Assembly (NCBI GenBank): GCA_965215265.1
Contig: OZ244048.1
Coordinates: forward strand, 3,136,001 to 3,200,000
DNA from: Candidatus Poribacteria bacterium
Lineage (GTDB): Bacteria > Poribacteria > WGA-4E > WGA-3G
Length of the DNA: 64,000 nt
Direction: 5' to 3'
A model generated the notes under the pieces. It did no database searches. It saw only the letters and a list, made by a program, of their open reading frames with translations, and had not been told where the DNA came from. A program made the position numbers and the translations under genes. This document shows positions 3,408 to 18,116 of this stretch, piece after piece. How positions within the stretch are numbered: the stretch's first letter is position 1; each line of letters begins with the position of its first letter.

Positions 3408-4325
3408 ATGTCGATGAACAGTTCGATTACAATAGGAACGCGTGGTAGTCAGCTGGCGCTGTGGCAGGCGGGATTTGTCAAGAAACAGTTCGCTATCTAT
3501 TTCCCAGAGCTCCCGGTGTCGCTCAAAATTATCAAAACGACCGGGGATATTGCGCAAAACCGTCCGATTCTCGGATTAGGCAGAGGCGTTTTTACAAAAG
3601 AGATAGAGACGGCCCTCTTAAAGCATGAAATAGACCTGGCTGTGCATAGTCTGAAAGACCTGCCTACCGAATTGCCTGCAGGGCTCTGTCTCGCAGCGAT
3701 TCCTGTTCGTGAAGATGCACGTGATGTCCTGATCACATCCTCAGGACTCACATTAGGACGGCTGCCAGAGGGTGCGAAAATCGGCACAACCAGCCCGAGA
3801 CGTAAAGCGCAGCTGCTGCATACGCGCCCAGATTTGCAGATACAAGAGGTGCGGGGCAATATTGATACGCGGCTCCGCAAACTTCATGAAACCCAATTGG
3901 ACGGGCTTATCCTCGCCGCCGCAGGCATTAAACGGCTCCGCAAGACAGCAAGCATTACGCAGTTTTTGGATAGAGAATTGATGGTACCTGCCGTTGGCCA
4001 AGGTGCCTTGGCGATTGAAACACGGCAGCAGGATAGGGCCATTGCGAAGTTAGTCGCCCTGCTAAATAACGCCCGGGCAGAGACTGAAATCACTGCAGAA
4101 AGAACGGTATTGGAAAGACTCGGCGGCGGATGCAATGTCCCTATTGGTGCAAACGCTATGCATGTGGCCGGTGAACTCTCACTTATCGCTACTGTCTGTC
4201 ATCCAGAAGGTACCCGGCGTATTGTAGAGAGGGCCACGGCACCCTCAAACGATGCCCAGCTGCTAGGCGAACTAATCGCCGATAAACTCCGCACCGGCGG
4301 GGCAGCTCAACTTTTAAAGATGTGA
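3408..4325 (+). CDS. hemC: Hydroxymethylbilane synthase (porphobilinogen deaminase)
   Basis: Motifs IGTRGSQLALWQA, GVFTKEIE, AVHSLKDLP, RGNIDTRL and LGGGCNVPIG. Confidence 0.97.
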   Translation: MSMNSSITIGTRGSQLALWQAGFVKKQFAIYFPELPVSLKIIKTTGDIAQNRPILGLGRGVFTKEIETALLKHEIDLAVHSLKDLPTELPAGLCLAAIPVREDARDVLITSSGLTLGRLPEGAKIGTTSPRRKAQLLHTRPDLQIQEVRGNIDTRLRKLHETQLDGLILAAAGIKRLRKTASITQFLDRELMVPAVGQGALAIETRQQDRAIAKLVALLNNARAETEITAERTVLERLGGGCNVPIGANAMHVAGELSLIATVCHPEGTRRIVERATAPSNDAQLLGELIADKLRTGGAAQLLKM

Positions 4326-5884
4326 TGACTACACAGAAACAAGGCACTGTTTATATCGTCGGAGCAGGACCGGGCGATAGCAAACTCATCACCCTTAAAG
4401 GCATAGAATGCCTTCAGAAGGCTGATGTCGTTATCTACGATCTGCTCTTGAACCACAGCTTGCTTGAGTACTGCCCTGCGCATACCGAAAGGATTCAAGC
4501 CCCGGATCCGAGAATTCGTACCGCCCGCCAAACTGAGCTGAATCAGTCGCTCATCCATCATGCGAAAAGCGGAAAAACTGTTGTTCGTCTGAAGGGTGGC
4601 GATCCGTATATTTTTGGGCGCGGCGGCGAAGAGGCGCTTGTACTCGCGGAAGCCGGAATCACATTTGAGGTTGTTCCCGGTATTACCGCAGCGGTAGCTG
4701 CATCGGCGTATGCAGGCATCCCCGTCACGCATCGCAACTATGCCTCGTCGGTTGCGTTTGTGACGGGGCATTCTGCGGCATTAAAACCGGATTCAAACAT
4801 CGATTGGGAACGTCTCGCTACGGCTGTCGATACGCTTGTTGTTTACATGGGTGTGGCACATTTACGCCAAATCGTGGAACGACTCAGAGGACACGGTAGA
4901 ACGGCACAAACCCCTGTTAGCCTTATCCGTGTTGGGACGACTCCACAACAACAGGTTGTACAGGGGACGCTTGCTGATATCGTGGAAAAAGTGGAGGCTG
5001 CGCAATTGAGGAGCCCGGCGATTATCGTTGTCGGGGAGGTGAACCAATTGCGGGCGCAACTCCGGTGGTTTGATACTAAACCGCTTTTCGGCAAACGGGT
5101 GCTTGTTACGCGTGCACGTGCCCAGGCAAGTGGATTGGCAGATCTCCTAGAACTTAACGGTGCGGAGGTTATCCAATTTCCGACTATACAGATTGAGCCC
5201 GTCGCAGAAACCGCTCGCCTCGCTAGTGCTATAGAGATTTTGCACGAGTATACGTGGATTATTTTCACTAGTGTCAATGCCGTTGAGATTTTCTATCAAC
5301 GTCTCCGGGAAAATGGGAGGGATGTGCGTGCGTTTGGAACAACGTCCCAGCTCTGTGCTGTTGGTTCCAAAACGGTTGAGGCGTTAAATCGTATCGGTAT
5401 CCATCCGGATTTCGTGCCTACTCAGGCACGTGGGGCTGCGATCGCTGCCGAGCTCGACAATGTAACCGCTCAGAAAATCCTGCTACCGCGCGCCAAAATT
5501 GCTCCACCCGACCTTCCTGACAGCTTACGCGCGAAAGACGCTATTGTTGATGAAATTCCGCTGTACGATACGATTAGCGTGGAGAGCGGAAACCGGGCGG
5601 CTATCGCAAAACAACTCCTGAAAGGCGAAATCGAATTGGCGACGTTCACCAGTTCGTCAACCGTAACCAACTTCCTTGAGATGTTTCCTACGTATACCGC
5701 TGATGTCTTATTGGCGGACGTTCGCGTTGCGGTTATCGGGCCCACGACACAGGCGACAGCAGTCGCACACGGAATGCGTGTTGACATCGTGGCGAAGCAT
5801 GCTACAATAGAACACCTCGTTGAGTCGATTGTTGAGATGTATCAAAATAGGAACTGCTCTCCCCATCATGGACATGATGCCTAA
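4322..5884 (+). CDS. cobA: Fused uroporphyrinogen-III C-methyltransferase / uroporphyrinogen-III synthase (CobA-HemD)
   Basis: N-terminal VGAGPGD, RLKGGDPYIFGRGGEE and VPGITA. C-terminal HemD domain with VLVTRAR, IFTSVNAV, FTSSSTV and IGPTT. Confidence 0.93.
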   Translation: MMTTQKQGTVYIVGAGPGDSKLITLKGIECLQKADVVIYDLLLNHSLLEYCPAHTERIQAPDPRIRTARQTELNQSLIHHAKSGKTVVRLKGGDPYIFGRGGEEALVLAEAGITFEVVPGITAAVAASAYAGIPVTHRNYASSVAFVTGHSAALKPDSNIDWERLATAVDTLVVYMGVAHLRQIVERLRGHGRTAQTPVSLIRVGTTPQQQVVQGTLADIVEKVEAAQLRSPAIIVVGEVNQLRAQLRWFDTKPLFGKRVLVTRARAQASGLADLLELNGAEVIQFPTIQIEPVAETARLASAIEILHEYTWIIFTSVNAVEIFYQRLRENGRDVRAFGTTSQLCAVGSKTVEALNRIGIHPDFVPTQARGAAIAAELDNVTAQKILLPRAKIAPPDLPDSLRAKDAIVDEIPLYDTISVESGNRAAIAKQLLKGEIELATFTSSSTVTNFLEMFPTYTADVLLADVRVAVIGPTTQATAVAHGMRVDIVAKHATIEHLVESIVEMYQNRNCSPHHGHDA

Positions 5885-5909: not shown

Positions 5910-6635
5910 TTGCGCAATTACGCCCAAATCACCGAACGTCTGAAAGACTTGGAAATGCCAATGGAATTGCTTGGGATTGTCCACGGTTATCCTATACACC
6001 AAATTCGCTTAGTATCGTCAGCACATAAGCCTCGACAGGTTCTTGTCACTGGCGGTGTACATGGCGATGAACCTGCAGGCGTTGAGGCAGTCTTACAGTT
6101 GCTTGCGCGTGACAATACTGCATTGCTAAAAAAGTTTTCATTTTTAGTGATTCCTTGTGTCAACCCCTACGGTTTCGTTCATGACACCCGTGAAACCCTC
6201 GACGGTGTAGACATTAACCGTGCTTTTGAAACAGATAATGTTGCGGAAGTGGCAGTCATCAAGGAGGCACTAGGACAAACGCAATTCTTGCTCACAATAG
6301 ACTTTCACGAAGACTACGATGCAACCGGTTTCTACCTCTACGAAGGTAAACGTGACGAGAAGTACATCGGACCTCAGCTGGCTGCAGCTGCCAAAGCAAT
6401 CGGTCCGCTGGATGCGGAGAACCCAGGCGAAGATGCCCCCGAGATTGCCGACGGAGTCTACAAAGTTGCGACCTCATGGGGGACTCAGGGGCTGGCACCT
6501 TACCTGTTACATTTTCACAGCGAACATGTTATCATTTCTGAAACGCCGACAATCTGGCCTCTGGAACAACGTGTCGCTCTCCATGTAGCCATACTGGATA
6601 CCGCACTAGACAGCGTATCAGAAAAGGGCATATAA
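5910..6635 (+). CDS. M14-family zinc carboxypeptidase / succinylglutamate desuccinylase-like protein
   Basis: Motifs GGVHGDEPAG, PCVNPYG, DINRAF, DFHED and ISETP. Confidence 0.85.
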   Translation: MRNYAQITERLKDLEMPMELLGIVHGYPIHQIRLVSSAHKPRQVLVTGGVHGDEPAGVEAVLQLLARDNTALLKKFSFLVIPCVNPYGFVHDTRETLDGVDINRAFETDNVAEVAVIKEALGQTQFLLTIDFHEDYDATGFYLYEGKRDEKYIGPQLAAAAKAIGPLDAENPGEDAPEIADGVYKVATSWGTQGLAPYLLHFHSEHVIISETPTIWPLEQRVALHVAILDTALDSVSEKGI

Positions 6636-7626: not shown

Positions 7627-8304
7627 CTAAAAAAACTGTTGCGCCGCTGCGAGGTGTTCCGGATATCCGATATCTATCCACGCCACGTTCGTTTTAAGAA
7701 CATAGAGATTTTTTAATTTCGGAAGCACATCGTAGGAAAGAGAGAAAACATCACGTGCGGGAAATTCACGTGCAATTTCCGTATTGAAAAGATATACCCC
7801 GGCGTTGATATATCCACTTTGGTGCGTGGTAGGTTTTTCCAAAAACCCGGTAATCCGCCCAGTGTCTGAAGAACTAATTTGCCCATAAAGACGCGTGTCG
7901 TCTACCCAAACAGCTAACAGCAACCCAACCATGTGCTCTTGAAAGGTAGATGTCATCTGGTTGAGAGAGAAGTCTCGCCAAAGCACATCACCGTTCAGAA
8001 CAAAGAAAGGTGAGCCTTGGATGGACCGCATCGCATTTTTGAGGGCACCGCCAGTGTCCAATTTTCGATCGTCTTTGCAATAACGAATCGAAAGCCCTTT
8101 GTATGTATTCCCAACGGTTTCTTGAAGGACGTTGTGAAGATAGCCCGTAGCAAGGATGAGTTCTTGAACACCGACTTCCTTTAGGAAATCACATTGCCAA
8201 TCCAGGACAGAACGTCCTTTGACTTGCATGAGGAGTTTCGGAGTGCGTTCTGCTGTTTTCCCCAATCGCGTGGCACGGCCACCACATAAAATTATCGCTT
8301 GCAT
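7627..8304 (-). CDS. Sugar-phosphate nucleotidyltransferase (NTP_transferase family; HddC/mannose-1-P guanylyltransferase-like)
   Basis: Motifs AIILCGGRATRL, PKLLM, LDTGGAL, VLNGDV, FLEKP, INAGVYLF and WIDIG. Confidence 0.88.
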   Translation of the reverse strand: MQAIILCGGRATRLGKTAERTPKLLMQVKGRSVLDWQCDFLKEVGVQELILATGYLHNVLQETVGNTYKGLSIRYCKDDRKLDTGGALKNAMRSIQGSPFFVLNGDVLWRDFSLNQMTSTFQEHMVGLLLAVWVDDTRLYGQISSSDTGRITGFLEKPTTHQSGYINAGVYLFNTEIAREFPARDVFSLSYDVLPKLKNLYVLKTNVAWIDIGYPEHLAAAQQFF

Positions 8305-8391
8305 ACCAAATCTATTTTTATCCTTTGCGAGAGCTGTGGGGACACTTTAAAAGTGTCCCCACAAATAATTCTAAGGTTCTGCCAACCTATG

Positions 8392-8745
8392 CTAAAGCGG
8401 CTCTGGATTCGGAGCATCGCTTGGTTCAGGACTTGGCTTGGGTTCTTCTGGGGGCAGTGGATCCACAACCCCTGGATGAGAAATTATTGACGCGGTTCGT
8501 GCAGCAACGTCCATAACAAGCGGCTCTGGATTCGGAGCATCGCTTGGTCCCGGGCTGGGTTTGGGTTCTGGTAACGGTGGCTTCACAATCCCCGGACAAG
8601 GAATTATGGATGCTATTTGCACGGAAGCGTCCATAAAAAGCCTTTCAACCGGTGTAGTCCCCTCGGCAAAAATGGCCGCTCCACAGAATGTTGTCATCAG
8701 TAGGAGACTGAGTCCAACCGAAAATACGCTAGGTTTACGTGTCAT
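8392..8745 (-). CDS. Small secreted Pro-rich protein with two ~42-aa tandem repeats
   Basis: GGAGG RBS before ATG 8745, a signal peptide (..GAAIFA), and a repeated MD..ASII..PG.V.P.P.EPKPSP.PSDAPNPEPL unit. Confidence 0.7.
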   Translation of the reverse strand: MTRKPSVFSVGLSLLLMTTFCGAAIFAEGTTPVERLFMDASVQIASIIPCPGIVKPPLPEPKPSPGPSDAPNPEPLVMDVAARTASIISHPGVVDPLPPEEPKPSPEPSDAPNPEPL

Positions 8746-8782
8746 AGTTTTCCTCCGAAAAAATGTATCCGTTTCGGGCAAA

Positions 8783-10630
8783 TTATTGGCACGGGGTGCC
8801 ACTTGCCCGCAACAGATGGTTTGCTCTAAATTGATGGTTGTCAACTAAAATAGTCGGGGAGGCTTTGATGCCCAGTTCAGCGGCACGTTTGATATTTTCT
8901 CTAAAGAGTTGTTCCGCCTCTGGAGCGTCAAAACGCGCTTGGATTTTCTCAACATCGATGTTGAGTTTTCGTGCGCATGCCTCCCAACTTTCGTTCAGTT
9001 TTTTAGCACGGCATAAGAGATAGTCCAGATACTTATCTGGGTATTCTTTCGCTATTAGCAGCTGCCGGATGTCCTCTGCTACTTCAGGATATCCGTGTAA
9101 ACTGACGAACGGTGTTATATCTTGCGAACGTTTTTCTGGATTCTCCTTAGCGATAAAGCGGAGTTTGAAGTCAATTGTATCACCGAATTCCTTCACAATC
9201 GGAATCAACTTCTGCTCTGCTTGAACGCCAAACGGACAATAGCTCATTACAAAGAGTTCCACGGTGGGAGTCCCTATTCGTGATACACGGGATGTCAATA
9301 GTTCCTCAAGGTTCATCGGGGAACGGCTGTGATCTACATCCTTGGTGTGCAGTGCCACGACCTCTGAGAAACCGGGCGAATGTTTGGTATCATGACATTC
9401 CAAACAGACCGATGTCTCATTGCCCCTTCGGATGTTAGCTTTCTTCGGATTACCGATGTGCTGTTTGCCGGGACCATGGCACGTTTCACATTGGACACCC
9501 TTGAGCGTTGAGGTATCGTCGCCAATCTGGAATCCTGTTTGGTAACCGAATCCAGTCGTATGACAGCTGACACACTTTGGATCAAAGTACCGCTCCTTTT
9601 TCAAAAGCGTTTCAAAGGCAAACGCATGTCGCGTCGCCGACCATTGGAGGTACTCTTGTTCATGACAACTCCGACACGCTGTTGCCGATACATATCCGTT
9701 TTTTGCTTGTTGTTCCAACGTTTGAGCGGCGAAGAGAGGCAACGGTTCAGACGTTTTCGCGACACCTCGGTAAAAATCAGTTAGCAATTGGCGGATCTGG
9801 GATGCTTCTGGCACATCACCGGTTAAGGCAAGCTGCGTTGCATGGTGCCGAGTCAACTCTCCGCCTGAATTTACCCACAGTGCCAAAAATCCTAACGTTT
9901 TTCCTTCGGGTGTAGAGCCTACCCATAGAGGTCTATCTGCCTCTTGTATCGGTGCGCCTTCCTCCGGGCTGATAACGATATCAATACCGGAGAATTCTGT
10001 CAAACGTTTGGCCCCCAAGGCGATGAGAACGTCTACCTCCGGGGTTTCGTTTACTGAAGCGGATACGAACCCCATGGACAACTCACCCACAGTTTTTAGG
10101 ACAAAACGCTGTGTGTCCAGACGGTTATCGCTGAGGAACGGGAACGACGCAGCAGCACGCTGTGCGCTGAGATATGCATCCTCATACCCGAGGTCGTTTT
10201 GACTCAGTGCCACCGCATGGTATCCCATTATGGACATCGCCTGGAGGTTAACCTGACACCGCTGTGCATCGATTTCTTCAGTGCCATTAAAGATATTCCC
10301 TGCATCAACGAGTAACACCGGAATGCCGGCTTGGCGTATCTGATCCACAACGTACGCTCGCCTCGGTAGTCCACCTGACTGCTCTTGATAGCAGCCACAA
10401 GGTTCCAGATGACTTTTCGTACCACCCGTATAAAGGATGATGATGGCAGGCGGATCTTCATCTTTTAGAAATGTGAGAACGGTTCCAAGGGTTTCACCCA
10501 TTGGCTGGCGCGCCTGTTGCTTCACTTCCTGTATCTGTGCTTGTCTGCGCGATTCTGCCCAATGCGTATAGAGTGGTGGAAACGCTACAATGAGGGTTAA
10601 AAGAATTAAAGTAATTATCGCAAGTTTCAT
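8783..10630 (-). CDS. Exported or membrane-anchored fusion: UshA/5'-nucleotidase-like domain + tetraheme cytochrome c (c554-like) + thioredoxin/DsbA-like domain
   Basis: N-terminal hydrophobic segment; HLEPCGC..GGLPRR..LVDAGN; four CxxCH motifs (CRSCH, CVSCH, CETCH, CLECH); C-terminal ELFVMSYCPFG and GIKASPTILVD. Confidence 0.8.
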   Translation of the reverse strand: MKLAIITLILLTLIVAFPPLYTHWAESRRQAQIQEVKQQARQPMGETLGTVLTFLKDEDPPAIIILYTGGTKSHLEPCGCYQEQSGGLPRRAYVVDQIRQAGIPVLLVDAGNIFNGTEEIDAQRCQVNLQAMSIMGYHAVALSQNDLGYEDAYLSAQRAAASFPFLSDNRLDTQRFVLKTVGELSMGFVSASVNETPEVDVLIALGAKRLTEFSGIDIVISPEEGAPIQEADRPLWVGSTPEGKTLGFLALWVNSGGELTRHHATQLALTGDVPEASQIRQLLTDFYRGVAKTSEPLPLFAAQTLEQQAKNGYVSATACRSCHEQEYLQWSATRHAFAFETLLKKERYFDPKCVSCHTTGFGYQTGFQIGDDTSTLKGVQCETCHGPGKQHIGNPKKANIRRGNETSVCLECHDTKHSPGFSEVVALHTKDVDHSRSPMNLEELLTSRVSRIGTPTVELFVMSYCPFGVQAEQKLIPIVKEFGDTIDFKLRFIAKENPEKRSQDITPFVSLHGYPEVAEDIRQLLIAKEYPDKYLDYLLCRAKKLNESWEACARKLNIDVEKIQARFDAPEAEQLFRENIKRAAELGIKASPTILVDNHQFRANHLLRASGTPCQ

Positions 10631-11782
10631 TTAAAAAAACCTATTGAAGAGAGAAATAATCCCTAAATGGAAAGGACCTTTACAGATGACTGTTAACAGC
10701 CCACCGAAGGTAATCACGGGGGCAAAACGAATAGCAGGTTGGATCTGGATTTTGTTATTGAAGTGCGTAAAAGCATTTTCTTTAACTAAACTTTGTAATT
10801 CACGAATTGTTTCCTCCGAGAGGCCGACTAGATCCGTTGTTATGAGCTCACCGCCTTGTTTTCGTTCGCTTCTGTCCATCTGTTTCTCATAAGAGACATG
10901 CCCGTCTGCCTGCTCCATTTTGACGATGTGTTCGCTGAGGATCATGCCAACCTGTAAGTCTGATACATCCACGGTCCGGTCAAACGCGACACTCGCTAAC
11001 TGGAGCACGAGCTGCTTCGCTACAACAAAGATGAGGAAATAAAAAGCTAAGAAAAAGGCGAGACTCCCTAACATCAAACCAATTGAAGGGGCAGTTTTTA
11101 GCATCAACCATCCACTCACGAATAGCATGATGACGACAGCAGTGGGTGTTTTCAACAACGAACCCAACACTTTTTGCACAATGGCCAAAAAAGCTAGCAC
11201 CAGCACCAATTGCATCACCCGGTCTAATTGCCAACCCAATCTATCTAAAAGATAAGAGAGTCCTGCTCCGATGAGAATAAATTGAAGCAGATTAAACAAT
11301 TTATCCAGCACCGAATTCCGATCGAGGGATGTCTTGATGAGTTGAATCAACACCGTACCTATTCCCCGGATCTTGACTAACTTTACGATGAGGTAAACCA
11401 CCGAGATTACGGTATAGGGCACGATAATATTTATCATCACTACCACAGGGGGAAACATTAACATCTCTTGTATGGGACCAAACCACCATGAAGGTAGTAT
11501 TAAACAAATTCCCCAGAAAAACTTTGAGTCCCCCGGTGAGAAGATGCCAAACGTATAAAATGCAATGGCGATAACACCACTGGTGACAAATAGGATTACA
11601 ATGTTTAAAGGGGTAGTCAACCCCAGGAACCATCCCATCAGCTGTCCGAGATTGCCTGCGTAGATGAGGCACATTGAACAGAAGTTTGGTATCTGGTGTT
11701 TTTTGATGTCCGTCCAACTTGCATAGCTGCAGAAGGCAAACGCAATAAAAATAAGGATGGATTCATAAGTGAATGTATTCAT
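10631..11782 (-). CDS. A24-family prepilin/preflagellin-type peptidase (GxGD aspartyl protease)
   Basis: ASWTDIKKHQIPN carries the first catalytic Asp and FSPGDSKF the second. It is polytopic and has a FlaK-like C-terminal IRFAPVITFG. Confidence 0.8.
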   Translation of the reverse strand: MNTFTYESILIFIAFAFCSYASWTDIKKHQIPNFCSMCLIYAGNLGQLMGWFLGLTTPLNIVILFVTSGVIAIAFYTFGIFSPGDSKFFWGICLILPSWWFGPIQEMLMFPPVVVMINIIVPYTVISVVYLIVKLVKIRGIGTVLIQLIKTSLDRNSVLDKLFNLLQFILIGAGLSYLLDRLGWQLDRVMQLVLVLAFLAIVQKVLGSLLKTPTAVVIMLFVSGWLMLKTAPSIGLMLGSLAFFLAFYFLIFVVAKQLVLQLASVAFDRTVDVSDLQVGMILSEHIVKMEQADGHVSYEKQMDRSERKQGGELITTDLVGLSEETIRELQSLVKENAFTHFNNKIQIQPAIRFAPVITFGGLLTVICKGPFHLGIISLFNRFF

Positions 11783-11884
11783 AAAACACGATTTCTGTTT
11801 CAGTTTATGCCCCCATGCGAAATCAATCCTAACCTAATTTAACGAGGCATTAGAAGGACTTCCCCTTCAATGACGGCTTTGGTC

Positions 11885-12483
11885 TTATTCAATCCGCTTG
11901 AAAGTACAGCGGATGCCCCCACGTTCTGCCCACCCGTTTGGAGTCAGTTCCATGATGCCATACAGCATCAGGTGCAACTTGTTCTGCGTGACTGAAATGC
12001 CTAGCCAATTGTTCCTCGAGGTCTTTTTTATCGAAACGGTTTTTCCGGTTCTAAGCCTGCTGGAGGACATGCCAGAGATGAATTCCGGGAACGGTATGCT
12101 TGTATCCCGAAAAACCCGTAAGAACGGAAAGTGGATATCGCCATAACGTTGTGTGCTGATTTTGAAACTTCCGGTCACCTTCGTGTCTCCATTTTTACCT
12201 TGATACCGGCGGAAGACGTTCCGGTCGGCTGATACGTCAATGCCGGTATCTCTTCACTCACATCGCCTTCATCAACTTCCATCTCAAGAAATTGCCATGT
12301 GCCGAGCAGCTTATCGGTTAGCGCCAGTTCCATTTTTCGTGGATCATGTTTCCTACGTTCATTTTCGACTGCTGCACGCCGTCTCTCGCGTTCGTTTTGC
12401 ATTTTCTGGTATTTCGGGCTGGTGCAATCTGTGAAAACGAGAGGAATGAGCAGGATAAAAGTTAATTGAACAGAATTCTTCAT
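11885..12483 (-). pseudogene. Putative lipoprotein split by one frameshift near 12230
   Basis: MKNSVQLTFILLIPLVFTDC is a lipobox-like signal, followed by DKLLGTWQF. The downstream ORF frame is open upstream of its GTG (..RYQGKNGDTKVTGSF), overlapping the first ORF. Confidence 0.55.
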
Positions 12484-13457
12484 TTCTGTTTCAATCTCCC
12501 CCAACTTGTTGTTAGCAATTGCACTTGAGGGTGGACAGGCAATGCTGCGGGGTCAAACAAGTGGCCGTCGATATTCTGCCCTTGACTTGTCAGTTGTTTT
12601 GTCACGCGAGTGGTCAGATCAATTGTGAAAAGTTGTTTCTTATCTTTCGATTTCTTTTCATAGAGGAGTTGTATTCCATTGGGGAACCATGTCGGATCCC
12701 TAGCAAAACCACCGGCTCTGGACACAATTTGCTGCCTTTTGCTCCCATCAGGTCTCATTATATGAATGGTACCCTGATTTATCTCATGGAGGAACCATGG
12801 CAGATCGGCAAAGGCAATCCATTCTCCGTCTGGAGACCATGCAGGGAAAATATGCCGTATATCGCCCAGAGACACTTTTTTCCGGACACCCCCTTGTGCA
12901 GGAATGAATATCAGGGGGTAGCCTTCTTTTTCTTGTTGTGCTCTCGCAGCTGGAGAAAAAGAGAAGACGATTCTATCACCGTCCGGGGACCACGCGGGCT
13001 GCCCCCCAAACTCCCCGGCGCGTGCCAAAGGTTTTTCATTTTCCCCATCAATGTCAGCACTGTAAATACTCTCGGTGTCTCGCAAGTAAACAATTTTTTT
13101 GCCATCAGGGCTCCATGCAGGCTCACTTCTATCCACGGCCCTGGGGAAAACCGCTTTTACATTCCGACCATCCACATCCATGAGGTACAAGTCTCTGATA
13201 CCGTCCCGATGGGAGACAAAGAGAATATGCTCGCCTGTGGGTGAAAAGACGGGGTCATAATCCGCTGACAGGTGCTCGGTTAATTGGATAACTTCGCTCC
13301 CGTTGGGATTCATGAGATAGATGTCCAGGTTCCCGTTTCGATCCGATGCAAAGACAACCTTTGCTGTTTCCGGTGCTTTTGCCCAAGTGATGTCCGAGAC
13401 ACGACAAAAAAGTGTAACACATAAAAAGCAAAAAAGGAAAAAAGAGCGTTTATTCAT
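12480..13457 (-). CDS. Secreted TolB-like (PD40/WD40-like) beta-propeller protein with a C-terminal TTSWGRLK tail
   Basis: Signal peptide from MNKRSFF; repeated P.WSPDG motifs; FASDRNGNLDIYLMN. Confidence 0.85.
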   Translation of the reverse strand: MNKRSFFLFCFLCVTLFCRVSDITWAKAPETAKVVFASDRNGNLDIYLMNPNGSEVIQLTEHLSADYDPVFSPTGEHILFVSHRDGIRDLYLMDVDGRNVKAVFPRAVDRSEPAWSPDGKKIVYLRDTESIYSADIDGENEKPLARAGEFGGQPAWSPDGDRIVFSFSPAARAQQEKEGYPLIFIPAQGGVRKKVSLGDIRHIFPAWSPDGEWIAFADLPWFLHEINQGTIHIMRPDGSKRQQIVSRAGGFARDPTWFPNGIQLLYEKKSKDKKQLFTIDLTTRVTKQLTSQGQNIDGHLFDPAALPVHPQVQLLTTSWGRLKQK

Positions 13458-13557
13458 AAGAATTCCTTTTCGACGAATTGGTATCATCCCCTTAAAAAGG
13501 AGCATTCGGCGGCTACCACCGGGGAACGTCATGGGAAGTTTTCCACCAAGCAGTGTC

Positions 13558-13597
13558 TGCGAGCATGAGACCGCCAGCGGCGACACCGAGTGCTAAT
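13558..13597. repeat. 40-bp exact duplicate of part of the precursor gene (13869-13908), encoding LALGVAAGGLMLA on the minus strand
   Basis: tgcgagcatgagaccgccagcggcgacaccgagtgctaat occurs at both positions. Confidence 0.9.
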
Positions 13598-13605
13598 AGA
13601 GGTTT

Positions 13606-13664
13606 AGGCGGGGCGAGATGTCACCACATTGCTTTTGCGTCGATATTTGCATCTCGCCTCGCCT
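13606..13664 (-). terminator. Stem-loop downstream of the precursor gene (terminator or mRNA stabiliser)
   Basis: aggcggggcgagatg ... catctcgcctcgcct inverted repeat, 28 nt after the stop codon. Confidence 0.6.
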
Positions 13665-13691
13665 GAGATTGTTAGAAACTAACATCTTTGT

Positions 13692-13979
13692 TTAAGAACA
13701 AAATTTATGTATTTCGACGATGTCTTCAATAACATGGCCTCGGTCCGGACAAAATACTTCTCTTGTCCCGACAACAATTCGATGCTCATCACATGTCTGT
13801 TCACCAGGACATTGGGAATCATTATCACAAACCTTACCAGCTTCCGCGTCGGGGGCGGTCATTGCCTGTGCGAGCATGAGACCGCCAGCGGCGACACCGA
13901 GTGCTAATGGCGTTTTCACGCCAACCCGCCCTTCCTCAGAATTAAGGAAGTCTCGGATTTTCGACTTGAGATTTTTCAT
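13692..13979 (-). CDS. Putative precursor peptide: Flp/class III-like leader + hydrophobic segment + 5-Cys core
   Basis: Strong RBS (AAGGAG). Sequence: MKNLKSKIRDFLNSEEG|RVGVKTPLALGVAAGGLMLAQAMTAPDAEA|GKVCDNDSQCPGEQTC...FC...KFCS. Confidence 0.75.
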   Translation of the reverse strand: MKNLKSKIRDFLNSEEGRVGVKTPLALGVAAGGLMLAQAMTAPDAEAGKVCDNDSQCPGEQTCDEHRIVVGTREVFCPDRGHVIEDIVEIHKFCS

Positions 13980-14001
13980 TCGGGTTACTCCTTTCTTTTT
14001 A

Positions 14002-14053
14002 CCGGGGATCTCAGCCCCGGCGGGATGGGCTCAACCTTTTAGGTTGAGCCCAT
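14002..14053 (-). promoter_or_regulatory. Two stem-loops in the 5' leader of the precursor gene
   Basis: Perfect 13-bp inverted repeat atgggctcaacct-ttt-aggttgagcccat (14025-14053) and ccgggg-N7-ccccgg (14002-14020). Confidence 0.6.
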
Positions 14054-14070
14054 TTTCAGTGCCAGAGAGT

Positions 14071-15629
14071 TCACTTGCACTGAAAATGCTTGAAAATAAC
14101 TTTTACTTCGGCAGGGGTATGGTGTTTAGATAACACTTCTACCAAAGCGTTTTCAAGAGGTTCAAATCGGTTCGTTTCCTGCCGATACGCACTTGGATAG
14201 GTGGTACCGGTCCGCGGATCATAGTATCGGCAGAAAATGGGTGGAGACAACGTGGAGACTGATGGATGCTGACGCACTTTCGCACGTGCCGGGCCCTCTT
14301 TAAAGAGTCTGACAATCTCCTGTGCAGTGTGTTCCCAGGTATATTTTGTTGCGAATCCTTTTGCAATTTGTTCAAACTTCGCTCGTCGTTTTGTATTTTT
14401 TAGAAGTTGGTTTATCGTTTTTGACAACTGCTGCATCGGTATGTCCAGATTGCTCCCTTTGCCAGAGGAGCATTCGACGAGTACCCCCGCACTCTCAATT
14501 TCTGGGGGTAAGCCATACTTTGAGAGGACAACCGCGGGGGTGCCGTACGCCATCGCCTCCAACACCAATGAGGGCGACGTACCCGGCACTGCGGGAAAAC
14601 AGACGATATCTAACGCTTGGAAAAAGATCGGTAACACCGCTCGGGTGCCTTCGTCCTCTGCACTGAAAAACACCACATTGCTTGGCGGGTTCCGGTACTC
14701 TTCTGCCAAGATGGAGTCGTAAACAAAAAAGGTGAGGTGTGGATTGGATGTTGCCAATTCCGAGATTACCTGCACGCTAGTGTTAGGTTCGAAACCTGAA
14801 ATAATTCCGATCAGAGGATGTTGTGCAAAGAGTGGGTTCTCCGTGAGTGCAGCAGTGTGTTGCTTTGCTAATGCTTTTCCGATGGGTTCAACAACATGGA
14901 TGCCTTCTGATATGACATGCATTCCGGCGGGATCTACGCCGAATCCTGCCAGCCAATCCGCAAGCCATGAGGCTTTGGGCAGAAGCAGATCCGTGGATTT
15001 CTGGGCGGTGTGTGAATTTAAGGCGTTTTCCAGAACCCCGTGTTGCACCCGTCTGTCACTTTCTATACAGCGAAGTATCGGCAGTTTTTTTGAATAGTAT
15101 AAGATGTCGTGATTCGGAAATTGCCCGAGTAGTAAGATACCATCGTAGCCATCCATTGCGTACCAAGGGAACCAGAAATTCGGAGGATCAATGTTTATCT
15201 GTCGATTTGACACGAGCTCGCCAAAATCGTGCCCTGAATCCCGGTGGGTGTTAATAGATGGTACCTATTCTCGTTTGTTACGGCATCCTGTGCACTTTTT
15301 TCTGGTAAAAACTGAAAAGGTACGAGTAACTTGAGAGGTTCCGTGGCTTGTGGAACTTTTTTCGTCTCTGCTGTAGGGCTTAACAGGTGTCCATGCCTGC
15401 TGAGTCGCTGTAACCGCTCAATGCCTTGAAAAATTTGATCGGTTTTGAATTGGGAGTTCAAGCCTTCAACGGTTGCATAAATTGTTTCCGCGAGGTCACG
15501 ATTGAGGAGTGCCCACTCCACGTCGTTGATTTCAGCGATGACATCGGATTCTGTATCTGCGGCATATTTCTTACCGCCGTGTTCAAATTTGTGGTGTTGA
15601 TGCACTCGGTATCTATCTTGAGTTTTCAT
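14071..15629 (-). pseudogene. Second RRE-like domain + GT4 glycosyltransferase, split by a frameshift near 15250 (ORFs 15195-15629 and 14071-15213)
   Basis: The N-terminus HQHHKFEHGGKKYAAD parallels HQLHIFEQDGGLYAAD of the 572-aa gene. The C-part has YDGIL, LVLEAMAYGTP and YTWEHTA, and shares the tail HTPAEV/HTPREV. Confidence 0.75.
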
Positions 15630-15707
15630 GATGTTTTTCTGTAAATTATCTTTCGTGAAAAATCGTAAATAGTAGGTTTCAAACCTCTACAACGGAATAG
15701 GCGTTTG

Positions 15708-17426
15708 TCAGGCAGTGGCTTGAATGAAACCCTGACATCTTGCGAGCATCGCTTTAGCGGCATCTTCATCTTCAACAAATTCACTGAGGATGGCTTCTAC
15801 TTCCCTGGGGGTGTGTTCCTTAAGAAGGCCAATAACCAATCCATCTACGACTTTCTGATTAAAAATTCCATAAGGATTTACAAGTTTCTCATATCGCGAG
15901 TTCATATTGAGCATTATAGACTTCTGCTCTACCTGTTTGCGATAAACATTCCAATAGGGTGCGAATAGGGTGTTGAGTCTGTTTTCGCAGGATAATTTCT
16001 TTTTGCGTTTGAGTTCTTCAAAGAGTTCTAAAATACGCTTAGCTGTTTTCTCCCAAGTGAATGTTTGTGCACGGTTCAGTGCCTTTTGCGCGTAGGTTTC
16101 TCGGAACGACTCGTCATTCAGTAACAGATTAACTTTGTCTGAGAAGTCAAGCGGCGAGGCATAACTGGTAATGGTGGCGATGTCTTGTTCAAAACGCACA
16201 GCTGGGACAATCACCCCCGCGTCTCCGACTACAGAAGGCACACCGTCAAAATCTGATATAATAGGTGGTACGCCGCAAGCCATTGCTTCCAGCACCGTCA
16301 ACCCGAACGTCTCCTCACCCGACACAGATGGGAAACAATAGACATCAAACGCGTTGTAAATTAGGGGTAGTTTTTCGCGCGGATGGAACCCGACATAGAC
16401 AAGGTTTTCAGGCATTGTTCGGTGCGCGTATCTGCCCTCGTTCCAGCCCGCTTGCAAAAAGAGGATATGCGGATTGAGTTCTGCCAATTTGAGATAGATG
16501 GAGGCACCTTTTTCGGCTTGGAGGCGGGAGAGGTATCCCACCGTAGGCATCGTCTTTACTCTGTCATCCTCTACAAGTGCTGCAAGTTCACACTTTGCTT
16601 GCTGTTTGGCCATTGGACGAAACAAGTTATGGTCAACGCCGTTAGGCACTGTGTTAAAAACGCTTTTATCCCAGATAAACTGAGAATAGAATTCACCAAC
16701 AGAATCGGAGGGGGCCGTAAACGCGTCAAAATCGCGCAGGGCGGCATAGTGTAAAAGTACAGAACGGATACCTGTGCCGCCATGTCCACGCACACAGTGC
16801 ACCTGCATGAGAATCGGTGGCAGTTCCGCGCATCGGAAGAGTGGGAGGAGGGTGTCCGTTTTCCGGTCAGAATGTATTGTAAGAATGCCGTCATACTGAA
16901 CAGCAATACTTTCAGGAACGTGGACGATGTCGCGCAGGCTCAAATCCACCTCGTAGAGATTCTCGTCGAGCTTTCTGTTTTGTTTACCGGCAAAGTAGAG
17001 CACTGCATGGTTTTTCAGTGCTTGGATGGTATATGCGAGGGCAATGTTGGTGCCTGCACTGGTGTTTTCTATGTCCGAAAAAGTGTCAGGATTGAATCCT
17101 GGCAGCACTAACAACACGTGTGGACAGTCATCTCTCTTCGGAAAGAGTACCGAAGGCTTTTCGCCACGGATGAAAAGCAACCCCTGTCCTGCATACTCGG
17201 TTAATGTTGCAAACGCCTCCTCGATTTCATTATCGCTATAAGCCTCTTTCAAGGATTGCGTAAATTCCTCAGTTGTCTTTGTCTCAGCGAATTTCAGAAT
17301 ATCGGCAATTGCCGAAGAGATTTCGACGAGGCGTGCTTTATCCAGGTCTGCGGCGTAAAGCCCACCGTCTTGTTCAAAGATATGGAGTTGATGTAGAGGT
17401 CTCGGAAATTTAAGCATACTTTCCAC
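15708..17426 (-). CDS. GT4 (GT-B fold) glycosyltransferase with an N-terminal RRE/PqqD-like winged-helix domain
   Basis: GT4 motifs VPNGVD, GYLSRLQAEKG, ETFGLTVLEAMACGVP (EX7E) and FTWEKTA. The first ~85 aa resemble the N-terminal RRE of SCIFF/ranthipeptide radical SAM maturases. Confidence 0.85.
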   Translation of the reverse strand: MESMLKFPRPLHQLHIFEQDGGLYAADLDKARLVEISSAIADILKFAETKTTEEFTQSLKEAYSDNEIEEAFATLTEYAGQGLLFIRGEKPSVLFPKRDDCPHVLLVLPGFNPDTFSDIENTSAGTNIALAYTIQALKNHAVLYFAGKQNRKLDENLYEVDLSLRDIVHVPESIAVQYDGILTIHSDRKTDTLLPLFRCAELPPILMQVHCVRGHGGTGIRSVLLHYAALRDFDAFTAPSDSVGEFYSQFIWDKSVFNTVPNGVDHNLFRPMAKQQAKCELAALVEDDRVKTMPTVGYLSRLQAEKGASIYLKLAELNPHILFLQAGWNEGRYAHRTMPENLVYVGFHPREKLPLIYNAFDVYCFPSVSGEETFGLTVLEAMACGVPPIISDFDGVPSVVGDAGVIVPAVRFEQDIATITSYASPLDFSDKVNLLLNDESFRETYAQKALNRAQTFTWEKTAKRILELFEELKRKKKLSCENRLNTLFAPYWNVYRKQVEQKSIMLNMNSRYEKLVNPYGIFNQKVVDGLVIGLLKEHTPREVEAILSEFVEDEDAAKAMLARCQGFIQATA

Positions 17427-17492
17427 CTATTACATTGTATTATCTGTACTTGTGCAGAGCACATCGACAAATAACGCTCACGCACTCTTTTT

Positions 17493-18116
17493 TTACTTTT
17501 TAAACATGTCGACAATTTCAGGATAGTGGGTTTCCAGCCACACCCTCATCTTGCTTACCGTCTGACTGTATAGTGCCCTGGTGCTCCCTATAGGGATTCC
17601 CAATTCTTTTGCTATGGCTTTATATTTTTTGTCAGAACCATTTCTCAAACGAAATACTACTAATTCCTTTCGAGTTAGCGTTTTCTCAAAGCAGAGACGG
17701 ATATCTCTTAACTCGTTTTCAAGCGCACTATGTTCGGGTTGATAAAATTCCGGTGCAGCGAGGCTCTCTACAAAGGATGTCTGTTCCGAATCTGCCTCAT
17801 GAACTTCATCCAGAGAAACAGGTTTGCGATGCTGTGCATCCCGACGAATCCTGCCTGCTCTAATATTCTTTGCTATAGCGAAGAGCCATCCCCTAAAACG
17901 TTTTGGATCCCGTATCTTTTCCAGACTACTCATCACTTCAAAGAAGGTTACCTGTACAAGATCCTCCGCATCTTCAACGGAGGCTATCTTATTTTTGAAA
18001 AATTCGAGAAGCTGCTCCCTATATCGTTGATAGAGAATACCCATTGCCTCGCTATCGTCTGTTTGAGCGAGGCACACAAGTTCCGCGTCGTTCAATTTCG
18101 TATAATTCCTTAACAC
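17493..18116 (-). CDS. ECF-type RNA polymerase sigma factor (sigma-70 family)
   Basis: Region 2 DAEDLVQVTF...FRGWLFAIAKN; region 4 YKAIAKELGIPIGSTR. Confidence 0.9.
   Translation of the reverse strand: MLRNYTKLNDAELVCLAQTDDSEAMGILYQRYREQLLEFFKNKIASVEDAEDLVQVTFFEVMSSLEKIRDPKRFRGWLFAIAKNIRAGRIRRDAQHRKPVSLDEVHEADSEQTSFVESLAAPEFYQPEHSALENELRDIRLCFEKTLTRKELVVFRLRNGSDKKYKAIAKELGIPIGSTRALYSQTVSKMRVWLETHYPEIVDMFKK

Follow-up and report, generated by a model that had tools for sequence, protein, structure and literature searches.

Glycocins such as sublancin and glycocin F are made with a GT2-type S/O-glycosyltransferase and an ATP-binding cassette (ABC) exporter carrying a C39 peptidase. They are ribosomal disulfide peptides that receive their sugar from a dedicated glycosyltransferase (GT) before export, and a comparable arrangement, in which glycosylation is proposed from the genes alone, is considered here. 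It is a gene cassette on the minus strand (7627-18116) of a 64,000-nucleotide stretch of DNA, the window, which forms part of the closed 4.83-Mb genome of a Candidatus Poribacteria bacterium. The cassette encodes two GT4-type proteins (GT1 and GT2) that begin with the recognition element (RRE) of ribosomally made, post-translationally modified peptides (RiPPs), a small precursor peptide, a beta-propeller protein, an A24-family membrane peptidase and a haem- and thioredoxin-containing fusion protein. The peptide has five cysteines, as many as sublancin. The system differs from the glycocins in having a GT4 (PF00534) with an N-terminal RRE and a degenerate paralogue rather than a GT2, and in its long membrane-targeting leader, A24 peptidase and propeller partners. 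Pfam and NCBIfam scans found neither an ABC transporter nor a C39 domain among the open reading frames (ORFs) of the cluster, which thus lacks the gene content that marks a glycocin locus.

Other described systems resemble single parts of the cassette. GtfA and GtfB are an active GT4 enzyme and a GT4-fold paralogue without catalytic motifs, which together transfer O-linked N-acetylglucosamine in the cytoplasm to a protein that is exported later. GT1 and GT2 would by analogy form a catalytic GT4 and a motif-less twin, a likeness at the level of the GT4 fold; GtfA/GtfB differ in their large serine-rich adhesin substrates, their accessory Sec export and their lack of RRE domains. The sactipeptide/SCIFF maturase of PDB entries 5wgg and 5why has a homologous N-terminal RRE (residues 4-84), but its catalytic domain is of the radical S-adenosylmethionine (SAM)/SPASM type whereas that of the cassette enzymes is GT-B, and the substrate leaders are unrelated. 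The A24 prepilin and preflagellin peptidases (FlaK, TadV) share with the cassette peptidase two invariant Asp residues, the FlaK fold and a substrate encoded next door in which E-x-G precedes a hydrophobic helix; they differ in that no pilus or archaellum machinery was found here and the substrates are not pilins.

RRE-glycosyltransferase fusions have been noted by genome mining as uncharacterised RiPP clusters (PMC7470986; PMC12710340), the 2025 study naming PF00535 (GT2) for the fusion (PMC12710340). The passages on such fusions in these two papers make no mention of GT4, a pseudo-GT partner, A24 peptidases, propellers or Poribacteria; the examples of the 2020 paper are in its supplementary Fig. 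S7, which might show a related cluster (PMC7470986). In the text available of a review of RiPP leader proteases, the terms "prepilin", "aspartic" and "A24" are absent (PMC10885120). Bufferins (PMC11626156) and lipoprotein-pathway RiPPs (PMC13056109) are described, in the parts of these reports consulted, as using a general export signal as leader, with periplasmic maturation and Cys-rich cores, and the bufferin type is recognised there by an MNIO (DUF692) enzyme with a partner protein (PMC11626156; PMC12452194). No MNIO/DUF692 family was found among the cluster proteins by Pfam and NCBIfam scans, which sets the cassette apart from the bufferin type; bufferins also differ in that the modification proposed here is glycosylation, that an A24 peptidase is present, and that the signal has a long, conserved n-region. 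A sponge "srp RiPP" preprint concerns, as far as its accessible text goes, NHLP proteusins and not this system. Literature on Poribacteria RiPPs and Cys-rich peptides, on RRE-glycosyltransferase fusions and on prepilin peptidases in RiPPs yielded no published description of the Poribacteria cassette. An earlier note, made on this DNA from its letters, had known of no described class that joins an RRE-GT4 to prepilin-type processing; none came to light in the literature excerpts consulted, although RRE-glycosyltransferase fusions as such were already on record (PMC7470986; PMC12710340).

Results

The cassette is a real, conserved and undescribed variant of leader-guided peptide maturation. As a conserved module it comprises an RRE-GT4, an RRE-pseudo-GT4, one to eight pairs of precursor and propeller, an A24/FlaK-like peptidase and a UshA-like/tetrahaem/thioredoxin fusion. 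When the linkage of peptide, peptidase and GT1 was followed through 81 sampled Poribacteria genomes (GT1 threshold E<=1e-20), the peptide query was matched in 25 genomes and the peptidase in 23, both occurring in 21, and GT1 was present in 20, 18 of which also had the peptidase. A peptide match lay within about 2.5 kb of 25 of the 27 best peptidase matches outside the window's own genome, the two exceptions being on fragmented assemblies. The order that recurs in 20 fetched loci is GT1, GT2, one to eight units of peptide and propeller, peptidase and cytochrome fusion, and the GT1/GT2 pair keeps its synteny with the peptide and peptidase genes at identities as low as 33-37%. Scanning 185,579 species genomes with a peptidase alignment gave 126 relatives; the best 80 of these 126 provided 79 loci, all from Poribacteria or unnamed metagenome-assembled genomes (MAGs). 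Full 8-kb flanks are available for 58 of the 79, to which the per-gene counts refer: a leader-type peptide is found in 57/58, the cytochrome fusion in 46/58 (following the peptidase gene in most), GT1 in 43/58, two or more GT-like ORFs in 42/58, a propeller in 35/58, a sigma-like gene in 31/58 (many as long fusions of sigma part, transmembrane helix and propeller) and a nucleotidyltransferase in 16/58. Since the same gene order appears in dozens of loci, the arrangement is far beyond chance. The co-occurrence of RRE-GT4, A24 peptidase and F..E.G peptides, which the earlier note had named as a check on its proposal, is borne out by the counts for GT1 and peptide at the peptidase loci.

The extra domain at the N-terminus of the GT4 enzymes is an RRE, homologous to one defined by crystallography. 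The N-terminal domains of GT1 and GT2 are related to each other by alignment and by BLASTP (E 5e-05), which agrees with the shared domain of about 85 aa described in the earlier note. A profile built from 33 N-domains of GT1 and GT2 orthologues and run against PDB sequences with hmmsearch matched 5wgg_A at residues 4-84 (E 1.1e-14), PqqD (3g2b) reaching only E 1.1 with the same profile; 5wgg/5why is the radical-SAM enzyme of a PDB entry on "thioether bond formation in sactipeptides". In an AlphaFold2 model of the N-domain (pLDDT, the predicted local distance difference test, 90.6), strands at residues 13-18, 21-26 and 31-35 are followed by helices at 37-45, 51-58 and 64-79, which is the winged helix-turn-helix layout of an RRE, three strands and then three helices. 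Foldseek with this model placed 5why/5wgg first, followed by the leader-bound lasso-peptide B1 proteins, the PbtF RRE and McbB. The RRE fold that the earlier note had suspected, and had wished to see checked, is thus what profile, model and structural matches all give. Pfam and NCBIfam hold no match for the RRE domain alone or for the C-terminal extension of the GT.

Searched against 1.84 billion representatives, the RRE profile found 661 proteins at E<=0.001. Among 59 full-length representatives there are 22 with GT4 Pfam domains and 12 radical-SAM enzymes, and one of 10 RRE-GT representatives carried a name, Poribacteria. Three fusions stand out: a 1024-aa metagenomic protein (P0131) made of two successive RRE-GT parts, a 785-aa metagenomic protein (P0147) that joins an RRE-GT4 to an A24 peptidase domain, and an 863-aa protein (P0208) that joins an RRE-GT to a methyltransferase. 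The first two are single representatives, and P0147 could be a gene-calling artefact across a deletion. A complex prediction from the RRE alignment and leader residues 1-47, run without controls, returned a score of 0.00 (mark 0.32) and gives no verdict either way.

GT1 has its donor-binding motifs intact, R301/K306 (in "SRLQAEKG") and "GEETFGLTVLE" being kept in 17 GT1 sequences. In all 15 GT2 orthologues the R is replaced by G and the K by N, and a two-residue deletion removes the first E of EX7E, R/K and EX7E being the GT4 donor-binding motifs. GT2 lies directly beside GT1 in 25/25 top GT1 matches, and we read it, from its motifs, as a putatively non-catalytic pseudo-enzyme partner of the catalytic GT1. 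In the window's strain a 37-bp deletion at about 15249-15254 disrupts GT2. Intact orthologues are 532-545 aa long, and tblastn of these to the window switches frame at about 15246-15249. At 15249-15254 a contig of run X6, which comes from a separate study, has 37 additional nt, and a 6-nt repeat marks the joint; contigs of runs X1 and X5 are identical to the window at the break, and run X8, with no contig across about 15094-15236, does not reveal its GT2 allele. Since the two GT2 ORFs are offset by 416 nt and the additional 37 nt restore one frame, this is a real deletion allele and not an assembly slip. The two GT4 glycosyltransferases of the earlier note are therefore both GT4-type proteins with an RRE, but the second is without donor motifs and is broken here.

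The precursor peptides have conserved leaders and hypervariable Cys-rich cores. The leader has a basic N-terminus, F..E.G, a hydrophobic stretch and a P-x-A-x-A site directly before the core; in the window peptide the two motifs read F11..E15-x-G17 and P-D-A-E-A. Across an alignment of 45 peptides E15 never varies and at least 90% keep F11, G17 and V19, each taken singly, and mean pairwise identity (990 pairs) is 49% for the leader vs 17% for the core, which is the pattern of F..E.G peptides with variable cores that had been expected from the window alone. The cores contain mostly 4 or 6 cysteines, and orthologues of the window peptide are found at 77-84% identity. A profile search for the family gave 303 proteins at E<=0.01; no Pfam domain was found in any of the 120 members listed, those members that have names are hypothetical proteins of Poribacteria, and a single genome has up to 19 matches. 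Within the leader-coding region a 40-nt piece (13869-13908) is where the assembly graph breaks in all four runs, with a depth about 1.6- to 3.4-fold higher, as expected for sequence that is repeated between leader copies; one assembled piece also fits two places of the window, and both observations go with the relic of a second leader that sits between the genes for peptide and propeller (Table 1). Three further peptides of the window's genome have a leader that is related yet distinct (MQTH...KEDG) and other Cys-rich cores (Table 1). Beside them lie genes for secreted Kelch propellers and LamG-like proteins, with an ECF (extracytoplasmic function) sigma gene beside the third, and no cognate GT or peptidase was found near any of the three; elsewhere, in other genomes, this leader type is accompanied by a divergent GT/peptidase cassette of its own. 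Separately, at L021:2438-3586 (-) a leader (MKNNLRGKIREFMASEEGRVGVKGPLTL...) is joined in frame to a propeller ORF with the core absent, which looks like a recombination remnant within an array.

In the arrays nearly every peptide gene has its own PD40 propeller gene after it, at about 1:1, and the second (MQTH) leader type adjoins Kelch propellers. This recurring neighbourhood is our main argument that the propeller may bind the peptide, and the partner-protein logic of the cassette may be something new. The propeller of the window likely starts at M44 (MNKRSFF...), which opens a signal-peptide-like stretch; TIGR02800 covers only the propeller part (243-385 of 418).

The peptidase belongs to the A24 family by its two catalytic Asp residues with a GxGD-type motif, by profile and by fold. 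Neither D25 (in T-D-I-K..I.N) nor D85 (in S-P-G-D-S-K) varies in sets of 21 and of 38 homologues with identities down to 23%. The PF01478 match is borderline (23.3 bits vs a cut-off of 26.5) in the window scan and above the cut-off (26.8 bits) in the genome search, and PF06819 is matched at E 3.2e-4. With an AlphaFold model of moderate confidence (pLDDT 69.9), VIA-align placed FlaK (3s0x_B) first, at Z 12.5 and a root-mean-square deviation of 4.2 over 174/186 residues (model residues 6-377), the next row being at Z 6.6; by Foldseek alone FlaK was a weak match (rank 36, probability 0.60), and phmmer of the peptidase against PDB sequences found no match. In array-type cassettes a conserved 298-aa SAM-dependent methyltransferase is encoded directly before the peptidase gene.

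The protein encoded after the peptidase had been described from the window as a tetraheme cytochrome-thioredoxin fusion. Its haem sites and thioredoxin-like domain were found, but it also has an N-terminal UshA-like domain (NF041198, 207 bits against a cut-off of 275). This domain contains C78-G-C80, which sits where UshA-type enzymes bind metal; four CxxCH haem sites and a thioredoxin/DsbA-like domain follow, and the cysteines (C-G-C, CxxCH and C465) are all invariant in 13 homologues.

The remaining genes fared less well. The nucleotidyltransferase, whose best NCBIfam matches are mannose-1-P guanylyltransferase-like and all below their cut-offs, is an occasional accessory; the earlier note had made it the supplier of a nucleoside diphosphate sugar, but it is present in only 16/58 fully flanked loci. 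The lipoprotein and Pro-rich genes, both listed in the earlier note as parts of the cluster, are not conserved parts of the cassette. The lipoprotein-like gene occurs only in the closest loci, is intact in L009 and is a frameshifted copy in the window, where tblastn with the 212-aa ORF of L009 places residues 1-81 in one frame and 98-212 in another; a homologue of the Pro-rich ORF was found in only 1/79 loci (L030). Pfam and NCBIfam gave no match for the 109-aa and 97-aa ORFs of the lipoprotein-like gene and none of note for the Pro-rich ORF.

All the genes named for the cluster, as well as the strong ribosome-binding site and the five cysteines of the 95-aa peptide, were confirmed as one co-oriented block on the minus strand (Table 1). 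The stem-loop past the stop codon of the peptide gene is not called an intrinsic terminator because it has no T-run, and scans for promoters and for terminators stayed at the level of chance (15 hits vs 14.5 expected, and 15 vs 11.9). On its upstream side the cassette adjoins a Type ISP restriction-modification enzyme with Mrr-like nuclease, helicase, coupler, N6-methylase and specificity domains. Downstream lie a uroporphyrinogen-III methylase/HemD fusion of haem biosynthesis, an AstE/M14-like carboxypeptidase-fold protein and an ORF with a dockerin-type repeat.

Table 1. Features of the cassette and its surroundings (window positions unless a locus or genome handle is given)
Feature	Position	Strand	Remarks
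ECF-type sigma factor, 207 aa	17493..18116	-	First gene of co-oriented block; PF04542 2.1e-11, TIGR02937 73.7 bits
RRE-GT4 (GT1), 572 aa	15708..17426	-	PF00534 80.5 bits
RRE within GT1	about 17139-17423	-	N-terminal; followed by GT-B glycosyltransferase and C-terminal extension of ~100 aa
RRE-pseudo-GT4 (GT2), split	14071..15629	-	PF00534 39.4 bits; BLASTP vs GT1 1e-32
GT2 ORF, 144 aa	15195-15629	-	RRE and beginning of GT
GT2 ORF, 380 aa	14071-15213	-	Second ORF of split gene
Stem-loop between GT2 and peptide gene	14024..14050	-	13-bp stem, -26.5 kcal/mol, z -5.28 (window 14012-14062)
Precursor peptide, 95 aa, 5 Cys	13692..13979	-	AAAGGAG 8 nt before ATG
Stem-loop directly past peptide stop codon	13612..13664	-	-33.7 kcal/mol, z -5.41 (window 13605-13692)
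Second-leader relic, 18 residues	13552..13605	-	78% identical to leader residues 22-39; E 0.59, weak alone
TolB-like PD40 beta-propeller, 368-aa ORF	12480..13586	-	PF07676 104 bits
Frameshifted lipoprotein-like homologue (109-aa and 97-aa ORFs)	11885..12504	-	Intact counterpart 212 aa
A24-family GxGD aspartyl membrane peptidase, 383 aa	10631..11782	-	FlaK-like including C-terminal domain; PF01478 and PF06819
UshA-like/tetrahaem/thioredoxin fusion	8783..10630	-	Membrane-anchored or exported; NF041198, PF13435, PF03227/PF01323
Pro-rich repeat ORF	8392..8844	-	Signal-like N-terminus
Sugar-1-phosphate nucleotidyltransferase, 225 aa	7627..8304	-	PF00483 97.4 bits
Type ISP restriction-modification enzyme, 1610 aa	19120-23952	-	Upstream boundary
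Uroporphyrinogen-III methylase/HemD fusion	4322-5884	+	Downstream
AstE/M14-like carboxypeptidase-fold protein	5910-6635	+	Downstream
ORF with dockerin-type repeat, 118 aa	6874-7230	-	Downstream
Orphan MQTH-type peptides (all three on the minus strand)	G000:C1:1971244-1971414, 1976235-1976441, 797454-797609		Window's own genome
Sigma-like long ORFs (examples)	L040:9626-12697, L052:9720-12659, L058:11831-14803, L018:12578-15550		Beside peptide gene
SAM methyltransferase	L010:15292-16185, L012:13256-14182, L021:10214-11110, L023:15726-16622, L024:13305-14201		Directly before peptidase gene

Discussion

We propose, with confidence and doubt in about equal measure, that the locus is one partly decayed copy of a RiPP-like cassette specific to Poribacteria, whose products are exported mini-peptides rich in disulfides. 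The N-terminal leader would be bound in the cytoplasm by the RRE domains of GT1 and GT2, and the catalytic GT1 would put a sugar on the core, possibly on a Ser or Thr that precedes Cys, with GT2 as its degenerate partner. The hydrophobic stretch of the leader would then insert into the membrane, where the A24-like peptidase may cut after E-x-G at the cytoplasmic face in the fashion of a prepilin peptidase, and a site of the signal-peptidase-I type (A-x-A) before the core would probably release the core into the periplasm. There the haem/CGC/thioredoxin fusion could oxidise Cys pairs, and the mature peptide might bind the neighbouring propeller, which would be its receptor, its carrier or its immunity protein. 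The binding of the leader, the sugar transfer, the places of cleavage, the making of disulfides by the fusion and the binding of peptide by propeller are steps that we infer. The possible site of glycosylation is suggested by the cores themselves. Ser or Thr stands directly before Cys in many of them, often as G-T-C, and [ST]C is found in 83/98 distinct cores from GT-containing loci vs 0/12 in truly GT-less cassettes (L077, L080-L093); within one closely related group, N-G-T-C in GT-containing loci compares with N-S-I-C or N-G-I-C in GT-less ones. The Ser/Thr before Cys is thus a possible sugar-bearing residue, which we regard as a lead and not as a result.

Several observations weigh against this scheme. 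In one genus the cassette consists of peptide, propeller, peptidase and cytochrome fusion, and no RRE-GT4 was found genome-wide (E<=1e-20). Since this genus keeps the rest of the cassette, glycosylation would be an accessory step and not the core of the system, and since its leaders are equally conserved, leader conservation is not creditable to the RRE. Taken as a whole, the reading given in the earlier note is partly supported; of its three refuting conditions, those on the RRE fold and on co-occurrence were examined, and both spoke for it. When all GT-less loci are counted, [ST]C falls to a contrast of 10/20 vs 83/98; the Fisher test for G[ST]C gives p 0.047 while ignoring relatedness, and the [ST]C contrast comes from two or three lineages. 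The thioredoxin-like domain of the fusion has a single C465 (CPFG) and not CxxC, the nucleotidyltransferase is scarce among the fully flanked loci, and the window peptide family has neither an Flp_Fap match nor the pilin E5/Y6 after Gly. Finally, two genes are broken in this copy, and therefore this locus may not be fully functional.

A broader reading, which is possible but which we hold only tentatively, is that the cassette serves a diversifying recognition between peptides and propellers. Glycosylated, disulfide-knotted, hypervariable peptides would be freed from a shared leader by a prepilin-type GxGD protease, and each would be read by its own propeller, either free in the periplasm or fused to an ECF sigma factor. 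The pairs might then be cognate ligands and receptors, or toxins and immunity proteins, used for kin discrimination or for dialogue with the sponge host, a suggestion we put forward just as tentatively. If this were true, the peptidase would be the first aspartyl membrane protease to serve as a RiPP leader peptidase.

Two rival explanations of the cassette were also considered. In the first case, which appears to us rather unlikely, the exported peptide would be a ligand sensed by the propeller, a sigma-fused propeller would control transcription, and the A24 protease may cut a membrane segment of the sensor in the manner of a site-2 protease, instead of or besides cutting the leader; the effect of glycosylation would be no more than a tuning of the ligand. 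Beside a leader-type peptide gene, more than 30 of the 79 loci indeed carry an ORF of 957-1023 aa whose N-terminal part is ECF sigma-like, one of these ORFs starting 4 nt downstream of the peptide gene. The fusion of L018 (991 aa, the only one scanned with Pfam) contains ECF sigma regions 2 and 4 and BNR/sortilin-type propeller repeats, and in each of the four fusions inspected a single membrane helix is predicted to follow the sigma part. That the pairing persists while the propeller type varies (PD40 here, Kelch beside the second leader), and that the window cassette starts with an ECF sigma factor, would also suit a signalling role. However, the window has no sigma-propeller fusion, the peptidase loci have a peptide in all but one case but a sigma-like gene in only 31/58, and arrays of up to eight peptide-propeller pairs would be unusual for a signalling circuit.

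In the second case, to which we give equally little credence, each Cys-rich peptide would act as an effector, bacteriocin-like or directed at the host, and the periplasmic propeller next to it would be its cognate immunity protein or decoy, the arrays having arisen by diversifying duplication. TolB propellers bind colicin peptides, and a conserved leader with a hypervariable core, together with tandem units of peptide and propeller at about 1:1, is what might be expected of such pairs. The leader relics and in-frame leader-propeller remnants point to recombination, and some cores have weak matches to defensin-, nodulin- and conotoxin-type Cys-rich families. These Pfam matches are all far below their cut-offs, however, some cassettes have a peptide without a propeller, and the 79 loci are all from Poribacteria or unnamed MAGs.

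That the peptides are pilin or pseudopilin subunits of an Flp/Tad-like system, processed in the manner of TadV into a fibre with a Cys-rich head, seems highly improbable. A dedicated A24 peptidase adjoins the peptide, whose N-terminus is like that of Flp prepilins in its basic start, F..E.G and hydrophobic helix. Flp/Fap prepilins are processed at the motif G/XXXXEY. In the peptides the residues after Gly are K/R-V-G-V-K, with no Glu5 or Tyr6, and none of the 45 matches Pfam Flp_Fap (PF04964) at E<=1, nor does anything in the window's genome; the Flp-type leader of the earlier note is thus not supported. A conserved A-x-A site lies between helix and core, no ATPase, platform or secretin gene was found in any cassette mapped with the window's genes, and the genome has one PilC-like two-domain T2SSF protein and a separate PilD-like peptidase, no search having been made for a Tad ATPase or secretin. 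From the missing Flp_Fap matches, the missing Glu5/Tyr6 and the absence of pilus genes in the mapped cassettes, a pilus was rejected. That the GT4 pair makes a glycan or glycolipid of the envelope and only happens to lie next to secreted-protein genes is hardly credible and was likewise rejected: GT4 is a very large family of envelope enzymes and GT-less cassettes exist, but each of the two GT4 proteins has an RRE with a homologue in a peptide-modifying enzyme, synteny of the pair with peptide and peptidase extends to 33-37% identity and GT1 is present at most of the loci, and fusions of RRE-GT4 with A24 and of RRE-GT with methyltransferase exist. Quinohaemoprotein amine dehydrogenase has a small cross-linked Cys-rich subunit, a propeller subunit and a haem subunit; an analogy with it was dropped because the cores of the cassette peptides are hypervariable.

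If the steps proposed for the leader-guided cassette hold, it would represent a new class of RiPPs in which three parts have no precedent: a GT4 that binds the leader and works with a pseudo-enzyme twin, a leader peptidase that is an aspartyl protease of the prepilin type, and a dedicated propeller for each peptide. The cassette genes are small and the hypothesis is open to a direct test by heterologous expression, and RiPP enzymology would gain an engineerable leader-guided peptide glycosyltransferase. Poribacteria are one of the dominant phyla of sponge symbionts, and their molecular dialogue with the host and with neighbouring bacteria is largely unknown. The cassette would, if this view is true, provide research on sponge symbiosis with a large family of secreted, fast-evolving peptides.

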